Shown here: in pieces, positions 11,814 through 18,062 of the stretch
Layout: each line of letters begins with the position of its first letter
Numbering within the stretch: the first letter of the stretch is position 1
Assembly: GCA_947630055.1 (NCBI GenBank)
Contig: CANRGA010000003.1
Location: 1,050 to 65,049, forward strand
Length of the DNA: 64,000 nucleotides
Direction: 5' to 3'
Source of the DNA: an uncultured Bacilli bacterium
Lineage (GTDB): Bacteria; Bacillota_I; Bacilli_A; RF39; UBA660
Position numbers and translations under genes: made by a program
The notes under the pieces: generated by a model
Told to the model about the DNA's origin: nothing
Database searches by the model: none
Seen by the model: the letters and a program-made list of their open reading frames with translations, nothing else

Positions 11814-13274
11814 ATGAAGAAAGTAATAAAAAATAATTATAAATTAATAATAGGTATAATCATAGGACTTGTAATATCAGTAAGTGGTGTATATGCTGCT
11901 ACTGCAATAATTCAAAGTAAAGAAGTTAACTATGATAATTCATCAAGTCATGGTTCATATACTAATGTTCAAGATTCAATAGATGAACTATACGAAAGAA
12001 GTGGCTTGACAAAATCAAAATGGGTAGATTCAACATTAAATGGTAATGATCCAGTATTAGGAGAAGGAATGATACCAGTCACTATAGATGGTAATGGTAA
12101 AGTTTACTATGCTAGTGAATATACAGAATGGTATAACTATAGTGAAAAGAGATGGGCTAATGCAGTTATATTGACAAGTTCAGCTAGTAAATATTCTGCT
12201 GGTCAAGAAATACCAGATAAAGATATTAAAGGATACTTTGTATGGATACCAAGATATAGTTATAAAATTTGGAATGATGGTAACTATACTAAAACAATGA
12301 CTTTAACAGATTTAAAGAATACAAAAGAAACAGCTACGGATGAAGGAGCATTATGGAAAATAACTGGAAATAATACTAGAATAATAGATATTAAATTTGT
12401 TGGAAAAGATACAACTGATACTGGTGATAGTGTAGGACAATATTTAACTCATCCAGCATTTAAACTAGGAAGTAAAGTATTAACTGGTATATGGGTAGGA
12501 AAATTTGAAACTGGTGGATCTAGTACAGATACAATGGTGGTAAAGCCTGGTGTTGTATCATGGAGAAATAAAACGGTAAAAGAATTTTTTGATGCTGGCA
12601 AAAGTTTTGCTCAAAAACTAGATAGCCATATGATGAAAAATACAGAATGGGGAGCTGCTGCATACTTATCTCATTCACAATATGGTATAGGAAATGAAGT
12701 AAATATCAATAATGCAAGTGATTATTATACAGGTTATAGTGCAGCTCCTGGAACTAATCAAAGTACAATACCAGCAGAATCAGCAGCACATACTGAGGGA
12801 ACAAAAACTCAACCATGGAATACTCCAGTTGGATATCTTGCAAGTACAACCGGAAATATAAGTGGTATCTATGATATGTCAGGCGGTGCTTGGGAATATA
12901 TGGCAGCATGTGTAGAAGGTAAGCCTGGTTCTAGTGGCTTTGAAGAAGGTGCATTATCTACTGAAATGACTAGTGGATATATTGATAAATATCCATCAGA
13001 TAGTGGAATAACAACATATAATAAAAGAATCTTAGGCGATGCCACGGGAGAGATGGGTCCTTTCTATAGTTATTTTGAAGGAAATGGAACATCTTATAAT
13101 CATTCTAGTTGGTATGGCGACTACGCTTATTTCGTTGGGTCGGCGTGGCCTTGGTTCAGTCGTGGTGGCGGTTTCAGCGACGGCGTTATCGCTGGTCAGT
13201 TCTACTTCAATAGGTACACTGGTGAGGCCGTTGGCGGCTATGGTTTCCGGGTTGTTCTTGCTCCAACCAAATAA
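11814..13274 (+). CDS. DGR target (variable) protein: signal-anchored, FGE-sulfatase/C-type-lectin-like C-terminal domain carrying the VR
   Basis: Motifs THPAF..GIWVGKFE, NISGIYDMSGGAWEY (GxYDMSGNxWEW-type) and a terminal ...GFRVVL. The last ~150 nt are repeated four times downstream with adenine-centred differences. Confidence 0.9.
   Translation: MKKVIKNNYKLIIGIIIGLVISVSGVYAATAIIQSKEVNYDNSSSHGSYTNVQDSIDELYERSGLTKSKWVDSTLNGNDPVLGEGMIPVTIDGNGKVYYASEYTEWYNYSEKRWANAVILTSSASKYSAGQEIPDKDIKGYFVWIPRYSYKIWNDGNYTKTMTLTDLKNTKETATDEGALWKITGNNTRIIDIKFVGKDTTDTGDSVGQYLTHPAFKLGSKVLTGIWVGKFETGGSSTDTMVVKPGVVSWRNKTVKEFFDAGKSFAQKLDSHMMKNTEWGAAAYLSHSQYGIGNEVNINNASDYYTGYSAAPGTNQSTIPAESAAHTEGTKTQPWNTPVGYLASTTGNISGIYDMSGGAWEYMAACVEGKPGSSGFEEGALSTEMTSGYIDKYPSDSGITTYNKRILGDATGEMGPFYSYFEGNGTSYNHSSWYGDYAYFVGSAWPWFSRGGGFSDGVIAGQFYFNRYTGEAVGGYGFRVVLAPTK
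13113..13261 (+). repeat. DGR variable repeat (VR), 149 nt
   Basis: Ungapped alignment to the four downstream 149-nt copies. It is strongly GC-rich and A-poor relative to the rest of the gene. AAY codons of the copies appear here as TAC/TAT/AGT/GGT/GTT. Confidence 0.9.
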
Positions 13275-13320
13275 TTTGTGAACGAAGTGAGCAAATTATT
13301 AACTTTGTTGCTTTTAAATA

Positions 13321-13358
13321 GTCACCCCGCTCTTCTTTTTAAGCGGGGTGACTAATTT
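13321..13358 (+). terminator. GC-rich hairpin/terminator after the target gene (possibly also a DGR target-recognition hairpin)
   Basis: gtcaccccgc (13321-13330) pairs with gcggggtgac (13343-13352), with a 12-nt loop followed by a T-rich run. Confidence 0.7.
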
Positions 13359-13368
13359 TTGTTTATAG

Positions 13369-13827
13369 TTGATAAAAAATTTAATATAACATAAAATGAT
13401 ATTGTAGGTCATAGGTTGTAAAAATTTGCTTTTTTACTTTTTAATTGCTTGATTTATGGCGACAACGCTAATTTCGTTGAGGCGGCATGGCCTTGGTTCA
13501 ATCGTGGTAGCAATTGGAACAATGGCGTACTTGCAGGTCAGTTCAACTTCAATAGGAACACTGGTGAGGCCAATGGCGGCAATGGTTTCCGGGTTGTTCT
13601 TGCAGACTAAAATATAAAAGTTTATTTAAACTTCATCATAATATTATTAATTATAAAGATATTATATCGAAATTAATGTGTTTAAGGACATTATTATGAT
13701 GCTTAATTTAGAAATTTATGACCTTTCTATTTTTAAAATAGGAAAATATTTAACAAAGTATTGTGGTTAGTAGTAAAATGACGAAAATCATAATATGATA
13801 GTAGTGCTAAAAATGGCACTACTTTTA
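13369..13827 (+). ncRNA. DGR template-repeat RNA cassette 1 (TR1 = 13455-13603)
   Basis: Promoter TTGATA 13369-13374, 17-nt spacer, TAAAAT 13392-13397. TR is rich in AAY codons (aac/aat at the positions where the VR varies). 3' flank has a stem 13634-13643/13692-13701. Leader 13406-13417 pairs with 13713-13724. Terminator stem 13800-13807/13816-13823 plus T-run. Confidence 0.7.
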
Positions 13828-13830
13828 TTA

Positions 13831-14296
13831 TTGATAAAAATTTTAATATAACATAAAATATTATTATAGGTCATAGGTTGTAAAAATTCTCTTTTTTTAC
13901 TTTTTAATAACTTGACTTATGGCGACATCGCTAATTTCGTTGAGTCAACGAATCCTTGGTTCAATCGTGGTAGCAATTGGAACGACGGCGTGCTTGCAGG
14001 TCAGTTCAACTTCAATAGGAACACTGGTGCGGCCAATGGCAACAATGGTTTCCGGGTTGTTCTTGCTAGACTAAATTATAAAAGTTTATAAAACTTCATC
14101 ATAATATTATTAATTATAAAAGATATTTTTATCGAAGTTAATGTGTTTACGGACATTATTATGATGCTTAATTTAGAAATTTATGACCTTTCTATTTTTA
14201 AAATAGGAGAAAAATTTAACAAAGTATTATGGTTAGTAGTAAAATGGCGAAAGTCATAATATGACAAGTAGTGCTTAAACAGCACTGCTTTTTTTG
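13831..14296 (+). ncRNA. DGR template-repeat RNA cassette 2 (TR2 = 13918-14066)
   Basis: Promoter TTGATA 13831-13836, 17-nt spacer, TAAAAT 13854-13859. Same leader (aggtcata 13868-13875) and 3' partner (tatgacct 14182-14189). Terminator stem 14267-14275/14281-14289 plus T6. Confidence 0.7.
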
Positions 14297-14388
14297 TGCG
14301 GAAAAATTTTTGAATAGTTTGGCAATTTGGTAGAATTTATGATAAATCAAAAATTGAAAATTTAATAATAGGTTGATATTTATTATAG

Positions 14389-14849
14389 TTGATAAAACTT
14401 TTAATTTAAAATAAAATAATATTGTAGGTCATAGGTTGTAAAAATTTGCTTTTTTGACTTTTTAATAACTTGACTTATGGCGACAACGCTAATTTCGTTG
14501 ACTCAACGAACCCTTGGTTCAATCGTGGTGGCAATTGGAACGACGGCGTACTTGCAGGCCAGTTCTACTTCAATAGGAACACTGGTGAGGCCAATGTCAA
14601 CAGAGGTTTCCGGGTTGTTCTTGCAGACTAAATTATAAAAGTTTATTAAAACTTCGTCATAATATTATTAATAATAAAGATATTTTTTATCGAAATTAAT
14701 TTGTCTACGGACCTTATTATGATGTTTAATTTAGAAATTTATGACCTTTCTATTTTAATAGGAGAAAAATTTAACAAAGTATTATGGTTAGTAGTAAAAT
14801 GGCGAAAGTCATAATATGACAAGTGGTGCTTAAATGGCACTGCTTTTTA
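14389..14849 (+). ncRNA. DGR template-repeat RNA cassette 3 (TR3 = 14476-14624)
   Basis: Promoter TTGATA 14389-14394, 17-nt spacer, TAAAAT 14412-14417. Leader aggtcata 14426-14433 and partner tatgacct 14740-14747. Terminator 14822-14829/14837-14844 plus T-run. Confidence 0.7.
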
Positions 14850-14852
14850 TTG

Positions 14853-15315
14853 TTGAATTAATTTTTAATATAACATAAAATGATAATGTAGGTCATAGGT
14901 TGTAAAAATTCTCTTTTTTAACTTTTTAATAACTTAACTTATGGCGACAACGCTAATTTCGTTGAGTCGGCGTGGCCTTGGTTCAATCGTGGTGGCGGTT
15001 TCAGCGACGGCGTTATCGCTGGTCAGTTCTACTTCAATAGGAATGCTGGTGAGGCCAATGGCAATCGTGGTTTCCGGGTTGTTCTTGCTAGACTAAATTA
15101 TAAAAGTTTATTAAAGCTTCGTCATAATATTATTAATAAAAAAAAGATATTATATCGAAATTAATTTGTTTACGGACATTATTGTGATGCTTAATTTAGA
15201 AATTTATGACCTTTCTATTTTAAAATAGGAGAAAAATTTAACAAAGTATTATGGTTAGTAGTAAAATGACGAAAATCATAATATGACAAGTAGTGCTTAA
15301 ATAGCACTGCTTTTA
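14853..15315 (+). ncRNA. DGR template-repeat RNA cassette 4 (TR4 = 14940-15088)
   Basis: Promoter TTGAAT 14853-14858, 17-nt spacer, TAAAAT 14876-14881. Leader aggtcata 14890-14897 and partner tatgacct 15205-15212. Terminator 15289-15297/15303-15311 plus T-run. The central part of TR4 is identical to the current VR. Confidence 0.7.
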
Positions 15316-15350
15316 AATTTTATAAAAATGTCAAAAATTGTCAAAAATGC

Positions 15351-15432: not shown

Positions 15433-15825
15433 ATGAGTAAGATATATAACGAATATTTAAGATTAAAAGCAAAAGATCCTAATAAATTGTATTTATTTAA
15501 GTCGGGTAAATTTTATATATTTGTTGGTGATGATGTTGATACTATAAATAATTATGTTGTTTTAAAGAGAACAAATTTTTCTAATGAATCTCAAAAATGT
15601 GGTTTTCCAGAAAGCGTTTTAGATGATTATTTAAGAGTGTTTAAAAATCATCATTTAGATATTGAAGTAATAACAGAAATAATACCTATTAATGATGATG
15701 ATAGTAAATTAGAAAAGATTACTAATTATTTAAAAAGAATTAAAATTGATAAGATTACGCCTTTAGAGGCTTTTAAACATTTAGTAAGAATAAAGGAAAT
15801 AGTAGATGATGAAGAAAGGAGTTGA
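15433..15825 (+). CDS. MutS-domain-I-like small protein (DGR accessory, MSL-type)
   Basis: ATG 15433 follows ggagg (15421-15425). NEYLRLKAKDPNKLYLFKSGKFYIFVGDDV...CGFPESVLDDYLRVF aligns with MutS N-terminal [30 protein letters not shown]...AGIPYHAVENYLAKL. Confidence 0.7.
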   Translation: MSKIYNEYLRLKAKDPNKLYLFKSGKFYIFVGDDVDTINNYVVLKRTNFSNESQKCGFPESVLDDYLRVFKNHHLDIEVITEIIPINDDDSKLEKITNYLKRIKIDKITPLEAFKHLVRIKEIVDDEERS

Positions 15826-16168
15826 AGATGTCAAAATATATCGTAATTATTTTGACTTTATTTGTTATATAGAAATGATTACGGAAAAATTTCCTAAATA
15901 TACTAAATTTGGTTTTGTTAATATTATTAAGAAAACTTTATATAAAGGAATGGAAGATATATTATATGCTTATAAGTCATTTGAAAAGAGTGATAAGCTT
16001 TCCTATTTAAATGATTTAGATGTTACTTTAAAAATGTTAAAGTTATATGCAAGAGTATCTTATAAGAAAAAATATATTAATGTTAAAAATTATGAGGCAT
16101 GGAGTAGAAAAATAAATAGTGTTTGTACTTCTTTAGGAGCTTGGATTAATGTATGCCTAAAACGATAA
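15806..16168 (+). CDS. avd: Avd-like accessory variability determinant (four-helix-bundle protein)
   Basis: About 120 aa, helical, with a pattern like four-helix-bundle/23S-IVS proteins. Lies immediately upstream of and overlapping the RT, as in canonical DGRs. Confidence 0.75.
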   Translation: MMKKGVEDVKIYRNYFDFICYIEMITEKFPKYTKFGFVNIIKKTLYKGMEDILYAYKSFEKSDKLSYLNDLDVTLKMLKLYARVSYKKKYINVKNYEAWSRKINSVCTSLGAWINVCLKR

Positions 16169-17190
16169 AAAATAGTTTTGATGAAAAATTAACTTTTCAA
16201 AAGTTAATAGAAGCTCATCAAAGAGCTTCAATAGGAAAGCAAAATAAAAAAGAAGTTATTTTATTTGGAGTTGATTTAGAAACTAATATTATTAGAATTC
16301 TCAATGAAATTCAAAGAGGTATATATCGATTTGGAGAATATCGGGAATTTGTTGTTTATGAACCTAAAGAAAGAATAATTAAATCACTACCATATCGTGA
16401 TCGGGTAGTACATCAATGGTATGTAGAAGAATTTATTAAACCTTATTTTTGTAAACGATTTATAAGTGATACATATGCTTGTCTAGATGATAAAGGAACT
16501 CATAAAGCAGTTTTTAATACGCAAAAGAAAATGCGCTATATGAAAAGAAAATACGGCCATTATTATGTTTTAAAGTGTGATATTAAAAAATATTTTTATA
16601 GTATTGATAAGAAAATACTAATGGATATTTTAAGTAAAAGAATGAAAGATAAAAAATTAATAGAGTTTACAAGAACTATTTTAGATGATGGACAAGAAAA
16701 GGGTATTCCAATTGGTAATTTTACTAGTCAATATTTTGCTAATATTTATTTAAATGAATTAGATCATTATGTAAAAGAACAATTACAAATTAAATGTTAT
16801 ATTAGATATATGGATGATTTTATATTTATGTTACCTACAAAAGAAGAAGCTAAAAAAGTTCAAGCAGAAATAACTAGTTTTTTAGCTGATCATTTAAATT
16901 TAACTTTGAATACTAAAAGTAGATATTTTTCTCATAAATTTGGAATAGATTTTTGTGGCTTTCGAATTTATGAAACACATATATTACTTCGTAAAAGGTT
17001 TAAAAGAAAATTAAATAAAAGTATTAAATTGTGGCATATGTTAAAAAAGAAAAATAGATTTTATGATAAGAAGTTTTTATTAAGTTTAAACTCTTATCGT
17101 GGTCACGCTATTCATTGTAATTCTTATCATTTTATGCAAAAAGTAGATGAGAAAATAAAAGATTTATATCCAACAGAAAATAATAAATAA
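16153..17190 (+). CDS. DGR-type reverse transcriptase
   Basis: RT motifs: YRDRVVHQ, KCDIKKYFYSID, PIGNFTSQYFANIYL (the DGR-diagnostic [ILV]GxxxSQ), and YMDDF catalytic box. Confidence 0.92.
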   Translation: MPKTIKNSFDEKLTFQKLIEAHQRASIGKQNKKEVILFGVDLETNIIRILNEIQRGIYRFGEYREFVVYEPKERIIKSLPYRDRVVHQWYVEEFIKPYFCKRFISDTYACLDDKGTHKAVFNTQKKMRYMKRKYGHYYVLKCDIKKYFYSIDKKILMDILSKRMKDKKLIEFTRTILDDGQEKGIPIGNFTSQYFANIYLNELDHYVKEQLQIKCYIRYMDDFIFMLPTKEEAKKVQAEITSFLADHLNLTLNTKSRYFSHKFGIDFCGFRIYETHILLRKRFKRKLNKSIKLWHMLKKKNRFYDKKFLLSLNSYRGHAIHCNSYHFMQKVDEKIKDLYPTENNK

Positions 17191-17315: not shown

Positions 17316-18062
17316 TTGGTACCTATTTTAAAAATTGATCGTAATTTTAAAGCGGTAGTAGCAGATCCGAATGATACTAAATTACTAGAATGTATTTTAA
17401 CAGATATTTTAGATGAAGAAGTACATATAGTAAAATTTATTTCTAATGAATTAAAAATAACAGATTTAATAGTTGAAACAAATAATGGAGAATGTCTACT
17501 TATTGAATTAAATAGTAATTATGATAATTCATTAAAATTAAGAAATTTATCATATTTTACTTCATATTATTCGCAAATAGTTGTAATAAATTTAAATTAT
17601 GGTATGAGTGAAAAAGAACCATTTAAAGAAATATATTATTTAAGAGGAAATATAACAGGAAGAATATATACGGATACTTTTAAAATAATCGATGTAAATC
17701 TTGATAAGTATAAAGAGAAATGGTACGATAAATGTATAGAAGGCGACAAAAAACATATATATCTAGTAATGTTAAATGCTAATTCAAAAGAAATAAAAAA
17801 ATTAAGTAAAAGAGATAAAATAATAAGGGAGTATGAGAAAAAGATGTTAACTTTAACAAAAGAAGGTGTAGTAATAAATCATTTGACACCAAAAGAGGAA
17901 GAAGAAAAATTAATGCGTTCAAGAATACATATGGCAGAAATAGAAGGAATTAATAAAGTTGCAATTAATCTTTTAAAAACAAATATGTCTATAGAATATA
18001 TTGAAAAAGTAACGGGACTTACGAAAAGAGAAATTAAAATATTAAAGGAAAAAATAAAATAA
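17316..18062 (+). CDS. Rpn/YhgA-like PD-(D/E)XK recombination-promoting nuclease/putative transposase
   Basis: TTG start after gggagg. N-terminal pattern ...FKAVVADPNDTKLLECILTDIL...DLIVETNNGECLLIELN... and a C-terminal HTH-like tail (SIEYIEKVTGLTKREIKIL) typical of the family. Confidence 0.6.
   Translation: MVPILKIDRNFKAVVADPNDTKLLECILTDILDEEVHIVKFISNELKITDLIVETNNGECLLIELNSNYDNSLKLRNLSYFTSYYSQIVVINLNYGMSEKEPFKEIYYLRGNITGRIYTDTFKIIDVNLDKYKEKWYDKCIEGDKKHIYLVMLNANSKEIKKLSKRDKIIREYEKKMLTLTKEGVVINHLTPKEEEEKLMRSRIHMAEIEGINKVAINLLKTNMSIEYIEKVTGLTKREIKILKEKIK

Follow-up and report, generated by a model that had tools for sequence, protein, structure and literature searches.

The locus and its template cassettes

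The window analyzed here is a stretch of 64,000 nucleotides (nt), or 64 kb, from an uncultured Bacilli bacterium (assembly GCA_947630055.1, contig CANRGA010000003.1, positions 1,050 to 65,049), a spore-forming member of the Bacillota with 26% G+C from a rabbit gut metagenome. It holds a complete diversity-generating retroelement (DGR), comprising a target gene that ends in a variable repeat (VR), four cassettes that each carry a template repeat (TR1 to TR4), a MutS-domain-I-like gene, a bAvd gene, and a gene for a reverse transcriptase (RT). Several features of DGRs were found here, namely an RT adjoining the repeats, adenine differences between TR and VR, a VR that ends a C-type-lectin/FGE-like target, and a hairpin after the VR only. 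Where a DGR is expected to have one invariant template, however, this one has four nonidentical TRs, at least three of which serve as donors; within one strain type, each is invariant among samples. The features of the locus are listed below in window coordinates (aa, amino acids; MSL, MutS-like).

11814 to 13274, + strand: DGR target gene, 486 aa, with an N-terminal membrane anchor and an FGE-sulfatase/C-type-lectin-like (CLec) C-terminal domain
13113 to 13262, + strand: VR, 150 nt, the final 50 codons of the target open reading frame (ORF)
13270 to 13300, + strand: candidate target-recognition hairpin or cruciform, a 10-bp inverted repeat that starts 7 nt past the VR
13321 to 13354, + strand: G+C-rich terminator-type hairpin of the target gene, called from sequence and fold
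13369 to 13823, + strand: cassette 1, with promoter-like TTGATA-17-TAAAAT at 13369 to 13397, leader, TR1 at 13455 to 13604, spacer, and terminator at 13800 to 13823
13831 to 14290, + strand: cassette 2, with promoter-like site at 13831 to 13859, TR2 at 13918 to 14067, and terminator at 14266 to 14290
14297 to 14388, + strand: extra spacer of ~90 nt between cassettes 2 and 3, called from alignment (spacing of 558 nt versus the usual ~464 nt)
14389 to 14845, + strand: cassette 3, with promoter-like site at 14389 to 14417, TR3 at 14476 to 14625, and terminator at 14821 to 14845
14853 to 15312, + strand: cassette 4, with promoter-like TTGAAT-17-TAAAAT at 14853 to 14881, TR4 at 14940 to 15089, and terminator at 15288 to 15312
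15433 to 15825, + strand: MutS-domain-I-like accessory gene (MSL class), Pfam MutS_I at 35.1 bits (cut-off, 20.6)
15806 to 16168, + strand: bAvd accessory gene, Pfam bAvd at 60.9 bits (cut-off, 40) and NCBIfam DivGenRetAVD at 75.9 bits (cut-off, 80)
16153 to 17190, + strand: DGR RT, Pfam RVT_1 at 59.9 bits, with IGNFTSQ and YMDD motifs

The target ORF scores 28 bits against the Pfam FGE-sulfatase model (cut-off, 23.3). No paralog of its C-terminal domain lies inside the window, in which the repeat occurs in five copies in all (the VR and TR1 to TR4). No NCBIfam RT model reached its cut-off with the RT; its IGNFTSQ motif is of the I/LGxxxSQ type, which we take to be a mark of DGR RTs. The four cassettes (~460 nt each) stand in tandem and share one build, in which a promoter-like TTGATA or TTGAAT, 17 nt, and TAAAAT precede a leader and the 150-nt TR; a conserved spacer (~200 nt) then leads to a terminator-like hairpin. 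TR4 is adenine-poor, with 24 A versus 34 to 36 in TR1 to TR3.

Templates are constant across samples and the VR is rewritten

Exact-protein look-up of the 130-aa MSL form, Avd, the RT, and two upstream proteins retrieved conspecific contigs from other samples. The same look-up gave no matches for the 140-aa MSL form or for the target, and the small ORF encoded by the TR, used as a protein query for TR variants, recovered only seven short fragments. All contigs are metagenome assemblies at 2 to 5× coverage, in which the exact crossover points of a VR could be chimeric. Sequencing runs (X4 to X7 below) were examined at the level of Logan contigs, and in the source sample these cover the VR only in fragments.

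Contigs of the same strain type from four to five other samples reproduce TR1 to TR4 base for base. TR1 is unchanged over its full length in L104 and over the first 112 nt in L102, TR2 in L082 and L104, TR3 in L082, L084, and L097, and TR4 in L082, L084, L085, and L097. One of these contigs, L082, is 100% identical to the window over 3,756 nt and carries part of TR1 together with TR2 to TR4. The VRs, meanwhile, trace to different donors. That of L101 derives from TR1 (5 A-type and 0 non-A differences), that of L102, which shares its sample with L082, goes back to TR2 (18 A-type, 1 non-A), and that of L103 derives from TR4 (5 A-type, 0 non-A). Relative to TR4 alone, the window VR has 9 A-type and 5 non-A differences, and the latter five are confined to columns 105 to 128 and accounted for by TR1; this VR is thus a patchwork with adenine-only changes, in which columns 1 to ~104 come from TR4 and ~92 to 150 from TR1. 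At least three cassettes (TR1, TR2, and TR4) are therefore live donors. Since the TRs are constant while the VRs differ across samples, the VR is the moving partner.

The initial annotation had noticed that the center of TR4 (codons 19 to 31) equals the VR, including its non-A differences from TR1 to TR3. This observation holds over a longer span, columns 48 to 102 (55 nt, codons 17 to 34), and the identical stretch contains TTC, ATC, and GCT, all of which differ from TR1 to TR3. The same annotation took the identity as a hint of flow from VR to TR, a hint that is not supported by the comparison across samples, in which TR4 is constant in four other samples and the VRs differ by adenine-only changes. 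TR4 is the donor of the VR center in the window, in L103, and in L104, and in the latter two the center reads GTTGTC where TR4 has GTTATC. A contig from run X4 joins VR-specific bases to a TR4-like center up to 13180 with zero differences. In addition, the block GGC GGT TTC AGC ... GTT ATC GCT is present in cassette T2c of a second strain type (described below) and is therefore far older than any present VR. From the comparison across samples, the identity between the TR4 center and the window VR is ordinary TR4-to-VR retrohoming.

Two other accounts of these VRs were considered and set aside. The 55-nt identity contains eight adenines, and the naive probability that all would escape mutagenesis is 0.61^8, or ~0.02, which might point to nonmutagenic gene conversion. 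We dropped this possibility because two of the eight (in CAG and AGG) are never altered in the VRs of relatives, and the whole TR4-derived tract has 4 of 17 adenines altered, which is not significant. Chimeric assembly may touch the exact crossover points of mosaic VRs but leaves donor identification unaffected.

The beginning of the VR shows a pattern of its own. At window positions 13122 and 13128 (VR codons 4 and 6), TAC and TAT occur in all five VRs of this strain type (window and L101 to L104), whatever the donor elsewhere. The first ~20 nt of the VR seem to be rarely rewritten, which fits complementary DNA (cDNA) integration ending downstream of them.

The 3′ junctions of VR and templates

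At their 3′ ends the VR and all TRs have in common an adenine-free, G+C-rich stretch of 20 nt, GGTTTCCGGGTTGTTCTTGC, after which TR2 and TR4 share one further T with the VR. The junctions differ between cassettes and VR exactly as the initial annotation had described, with ...CTTGC(A)GACTAAA or ...CTTGCTAGACTAAA at the TRs and ...CTTGCTCCAACC at the VR; beyond the shared block, CCAACCAAATAATTTG... thus stands at the VR and (A)GACTAAA... at the TRs. The hairpin past the VR has a DNA fold of -5.1 kcal/mol (z = -2.7), and a hairpin of unrelated sequence occupies the same place in six of the six relatives folded (L001, L006, L008, L009, L010, and L014; z from -1.7 to -5.6). No hairpin was found after the TRs, whose flanks fold no better than shuffled sequences.

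In the BPP-1 prototype, efficient retrohoming requires a hairpin or cruciform past the VR (PMC3240598). By this criterion, we infer that the cassettes are not permissive homing targets. Against the suggestion that cassettes are occasionally targets of retrohoming stand these junctions, where the post-VR hairpin has no counterpart after any TR, and the TRs themselves, which are invariant across samples.

The TR 3′ flanks instead open with GACTAAAATATAAAAG, which is conserved in the family. It forms the first 16 nt past every TR (window 13605 to 13620; L001 to L014) and is kept at only 66 to 72% RT identity. This motif is probably where the part of the spacer RNA that serves priming or recognition begins.

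Cassettes change between strains

On a longer scale the cassettes are not invariant, as became apparent from the comparison among relatives that the initial annotation had proposed. In L085 (1 to 620; window 14466 to 15090), cassette 3 switches to cassette 2 markers at TR column 122 and keeps them until ~140 nt into the spacer; the sequence on either side of this tract of ~170 to 230 nt is that of cassette 3. TR3 of this contig additionally has one G-to-A change. The tract is a gene conversion from cassette 2 into cassette 3. The initial annotation had listed gene conversion between the VR and cassettes among its possible origins, and what is seen is conversion between cassettes rather than between the VR and a cassette.

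A second strain type (L081/L092, L191, L193, and L189) has five cassettes, T2_1 and T2a to T2d, and mosaic blocks recur in different combinations in the cassettes of both types. Over the MSL/Avd/RT region, the second type has 4 differences from the window in 1,818 nt. Each of its TRs is 6 to 16 nt away from the closest counterpart in the window, and leaders and spacers differ by similar fractions. Within the window, cassette leaders and spacers are 7 to 16% diverged from one another, as diverged as the TRs, so that there has been time enough for ordinary mutation. Compared to L193, L191, and L081, the window has a divergent island at ~12208 to 15320, which starts inside the target gene, takes in the C-terminal half of that gene and the entire array, ends with the array, and reaches 46 mismatches per 150 nt. 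Since its flanks are at most 1% diverged, the island is an old allele of the target C-terminal domain and the archive rather than the product of recent mutation in place. This suggests that target domain and archive are exchanged allelically as one module.

Several further observations concern variation around the array. Two VRs of the second strain type carry deletions: that of L191 (6170 to 6290) has an in-frame loss of ~63 nt whose junction lies at 3 to 4 nt of microhomology and which leaves a target of 466 aa, and that of L193 (3295 to 3450) has lost 23 nt, with a frameshift that cuts the target to 459 aa. These deletions could be due to integration of truncated cDNA or could be variants of low-coverage assembly. 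In Logan contigs from runs X5, X6, and X7 (window 13600 to 15320), cassette ends are joined in other orders, for example, a cassette-4-like spacer followed by a cassette-2-like leader, or, in X7, a cassette-4-like spacer, a 93-nt insert, and a cassette-4-like leader. TR variants in these contigs have 21 to 33 differences, and cassette number and order thus vary between populations. Just past the RT, at 17316 to 18062, lies a PD-(D/E)XK transposase-like ORF of 248 aa, called as 201 or 209 aa in L081 and L084 to L090, which marks a variable spot beside the DGR.

Templates differ preferentially at adenines

We asked whether the differences among the templates are biased toward adenine. With TR1 to TR4 in 150-nt register, 34 of 150 columns are variable and 23 of the 34 contain an A, in close agreement with the ~22 of ~33 counted in the initial annotation. 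Base composition alone predicts an A in a fraction of 0.48 to 0.50 of such columns, and the observed excess (binomial p = 0.019 to 0.031) means that the count also withstands the comparison with composition by which it was to be judged. A control for strand symmetry gave 13 A/G columns versus 5 C/T columns (p = 0.048), and A-only columns numbered 16 versus 9 T-only columns in the window TRs. The comparison of each TR with its own flanks was clearer. Columns holding an A vary at 23 of 42 positions in the TRs versus 39 of 138 in the noncoding leader and spacer (p = 0.0027), while C, G, and T columns are equally variable in TRs and flanks.

The nearest RT relatives (66 to 73% identity; L001 to L014, L024, and L055) have a single TR, ~330 to 400 nt past the VR, and a metagenome scan found no relative above 71% RT identity; members of the cluster brought nothing further. 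In 10 relatives the TR-to-VR signature amounts to 140 A changes versus 3 non-A changes, the A changes being 64 to G, 39 to C, and 37 to T. We polarized changes among the window TRs by taking the consensus of 14 single-TR relatives as the ancestor. Ancestral A was altered at 13 of 32 columns versus 10 of 85 for non-A (p = 0.0012; by base, C at 5 of 26, G at 2 of 31, and T at 3 of 28). Thus, the adenine excess is modest relative to composition but solid in light of the own-flank and polarization controls, which confirm a genuine adenine bias among the templates, one restricted to the TR portion of each cassette.

Three or more repeat units, the VR included, occur at ~10 of ~160 related loci. Larger tandem arrays were found in three relatives at 55 to 59% RT identity:

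L035, 140 to 4530: VR and 11 cassettes, period of ~370 nt
L053, 2909 to 6528 and 8185: 13 cassettes, period of ~315 nt
L037, 2797 to 5150: 6 cassettes, period of ~340 nt

Columns with a majority of A are the most variable in all three (compared with T columns, 24 of 35 versus 10 of 44 in L035, 35 of 38 versus 27 of 47 in L053, and 16 of 32 versus 10 of 41 in L037). In L035 the VR combines pieces of three cassettes and in L037 pieces of two, in both cases with adenine-only differences.

Origin of template divergence

We favor, as the somewhat more probable account, a stable archive of four templates that serves a canonical one-way DGR and whose members diverge at the codons that the DGR randomizes. 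Each cassette, from its anatomy, would be a self-contained transcription unit. By analogy with the family, the RT, Avd, and MSL proteins would copy any one cassette with errors at adenines, and the cDNA would replace the VR from its 3′ end inward, with the 20-nt adenine-free stretch and the VR-only hairpin as the presumed site. The outcome is what is observed, VRs from TR1, TR2, or TR4 or patchworks of templates, differing by sample. The cassettes themselves would be old paralogs. Their adenine positions are presumably AAY codons for ligand contacts, at which any residue may be tolerated, and divergence would gather at adenines because these codons are tolerant. Loss of an adenine would hard-code one residue in all VRs made from that cassette, and ordinary mutation with selection would accumulate at AAY, including TGG, AGA, and GGA codons that lie beyond adenine mutagenesis, while gene conversion between cassettes, as seen in L085, would reshuffle the resulting blocks. 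Recurrence of the adenine bias in L035, L053, and L037 is expected if the bias follows the placement of AAY codons.

The codons found at these sites speak for this account. At positions where most cassettes have AAY, pooled over four arrays, 23 of 75 alternative codons (~31%) end in a purine (NNR codons: TGG, ATG, GAG, GAA, AAA, CAA, AGA, GGA, and others), where single-step ordinary mutation would give ~25% and adenine mutagenesis of AAY would give 0%. Likewise, 11 of the 34 variable TR columns hold no A at all. The origin of cassettes purely by capture of mutagenized cDNA, one of the options first proposed, is disfavored by these 23 codons, which are unreachable by adenine mutagenesis; rare VR-to-TR conversion over evolutionary time is possible.

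Other observations pull away from purely ordinary divergence. Columns holding an A are ~2 times as variable in TRs as in their own cassette flanks, and A columns vary at 17 of 36 positions versus 14 of 50 third codon positions (p = 0.07), so that variation at adenine sites may exceed the neutral rate. When cassettes were paired across the two strain types, a hand tally gave 18 A-to-N versus 7 N-to-A changes (binomial p = 0.02). Some tracts differ at adenines only: TR4 and T2d are separated by four A-only changes at columns 58 to 65, followed by 85 identical nt, with AAT TAC AAC in T2d where the TR4 center has GGT TTC AGC, and T2b (columns 10 to 26) has TAC, GAT, and GGC where TR3 has AAC, AAT, and GAC. 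In L035, changes at A columns are rich in transversions (15 T, 15 G, and 10 C), resembling the TR-to-VR spectrum, and array templates have a mean of 31.9 A versus 36.1 in single templates. The excess over flanks, the polarization, the A-only tracts, the L035 spectrum, and the scarcity of adenine would also fit an occasional write-back from VR to cassette.

Such write-back, in which homologous gene conversion between VR and TR, direct repeats 0.3 to 1.8 kb apart, would over evolutionary time carry mutagenized VR sequence into a cassette, is an alternative that we regard as possible but doubtful. Adenines would then ratchet away and selected VR solutions would be stored hard-coded, perhaps at a rate far under that of VR turnover; this elaboration is no more probable than write-back itself. 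Besides the points above, it draws on the restriction of the adenine excess to the TR part of cassettes, on the low adenine content of TR4 and T2c (27 A in the latter), and on the gene conversion that operates within the array of L085. Third-position columns (A varying at 6 of 6 versus T at 10 of 27) and fourfold-degenerate sites (A at 3 of 4 versus non-A at 10 of 48) lean the same way, but these tests use only 4 to 8 columns with an ascertainment that favors rare bases, and cassette counts are not independent, as shared blocks are counted repeatedly. Against write-back, no TR changed among four to five samples despite at least four rewritings of the VR, and the NNR codons and A-free variable columns require ordinary mutation in any case. 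No segment that must derive from a VR was found among the cassettes compared; the TAC/GAT of T2b matches the VR of L193, a match that copying from T2b to the VR explains equally well. An archive renewed by the element itself, through the occasional writing of a mutagenized VR or cDNA back into a cassette, is a tentative proposal. If it were true, the array would preserve a heritable memory of earlier rounds of selection, and the one-way rule of DGRs would be leaky by design in multitemplate elements.

If the cassettes were instead occasional targets of mutagenic cDNA themselves, homing through the 20 to 21 nt of GGTTTCCGGGTTGTTCTTGC(T) that they share with the VR, the adenine bias would fit too, and the identity of the terminal 20 nt, with the next T in TR2 and TR4, offers a conceivable landing site. 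We nonetheless consider this very unlikely, given the different sequences past the shared block, the hairpin after the VR only, which BPP-1 needs for efficient homing (PMC3240598), and the invariance of TRs across samples. Chance or artifact, whether an effect of composition or chimeric assembly of the cassettes or of the TR4/VR identity, is less probable still and already largely refuted. The composition test in the window alone (p of ~0.02 to 0.03), the 16 versus 9 A-only and T-only columns, the 2 to 5× coverage, and the fragmentary contigs of the source sample leave some room for it, but independent assemblies give TR1 to TR4 exactly, the X4 contig ties VR bases to the TR4-like center, and the bias recurs in three unrelated arrays (p = 8e-5, 4e-4, and 0.03) and is absent in flanks.

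We conclude that ordinary divergence under selection, together with exchange between cassettes, suffices to explain the templates and that rare write-back is unnecessary but possible. On the time scale sampled, the VR alone changes; the cassettes show a long-term loss of adenine that is compatible with rare back-flow but does not require it. The initial annotation had noted that any of its possible origins would depart from the one-way TR-to-VR rule; cassettes do change between strains, and across samples TRs stay fixed while VRs are rewritten.

Comparison with known systems

The usual picture of a DGR is one invariant template, with all diversity credited to its adenine mutagenesis. Here and in the related arrays of gut Bacilli (6 to 13 cassettes), several templates serve one target, and they differ at scaffold codons (W/F/Y and L/I) as well as at randomized ones. 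This adds to adenine mutagenesis a choice of template, the mixing of templates within one VR, and residues that cannot be reached from AAY by adenine mutagenesis, e.g., Trp, Met, Glu, Lys, Gln, and Arg. It also raises a question about the one-way rule, namely, whether template adenines are lost via ordinary mutation or write-back. For DGR-based directed evolution, a natural multitemplate design and the presumed determinants of template safety, such as a hairpin-free TR 3′ flank, would be useful.

The accessory genes place this element among known DGRs. In the MSL class, described in the survey by Wu et al. 2018 (PMC5758913), a small MutS-like accessory gene occurs together with avd (architecture D, which includes the Legionella DGR), and the combination of MutS_I and bAvd here corresponds to this architecture D type. 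Tandem TR arrays that feed one VR are not described in the portions of that survey's text that were searched, nor did we find a description of them elsewhere in the literature searched; DGRs with several TRs, each of which has its own VRs, have been described (PMC6642488). The BPP-1 DGR (mtd VR, avd, one TR, and brt) resembles the present element in its RT and Avd, in adenine-only TR/VR differences, in a VR that ends a target with a C-type-lectin fold, in a G+C-rich shared 3′ end with a hairpin after the VR only (PMC3240598), and, over the time scale that can be observed, in a flow from TR to VR only. Unlike BPP-1, with its one TR, the present element has four TRs, and five in the sister strain type, each in a cassette of its own with promoter- and terminator-like sites and located upstream of the accessory genes. 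Furthermore, VRs here are patchworks of templates that differ at 34 of 150 positions.

Antigenic variation from silent cassettes is known from Borrelia vlsE/vls, Neisseria pilE/pilS, and the donors of Treponema tprK. Like those systems, the present locus keeps an archive of unexpressed segments beside one expression site, its expressed copies are mosaics, and its archive evolves by gene conversion. A RecA-type system of the vls/pilS kind, with faithful promoterless donors and no RT, was considered for this locus and does not fit, given the promoter-like sites, the adenine-specific changes, and the adjacent RT and Avd. What sets this DGR apart from the silent-cassette systems is that transfer bears the adenine-specific signature of an RT, with point hypermutation on top, and that each cassette has its own promoter- and terminator-like sites along with a conserved RNA spacer.

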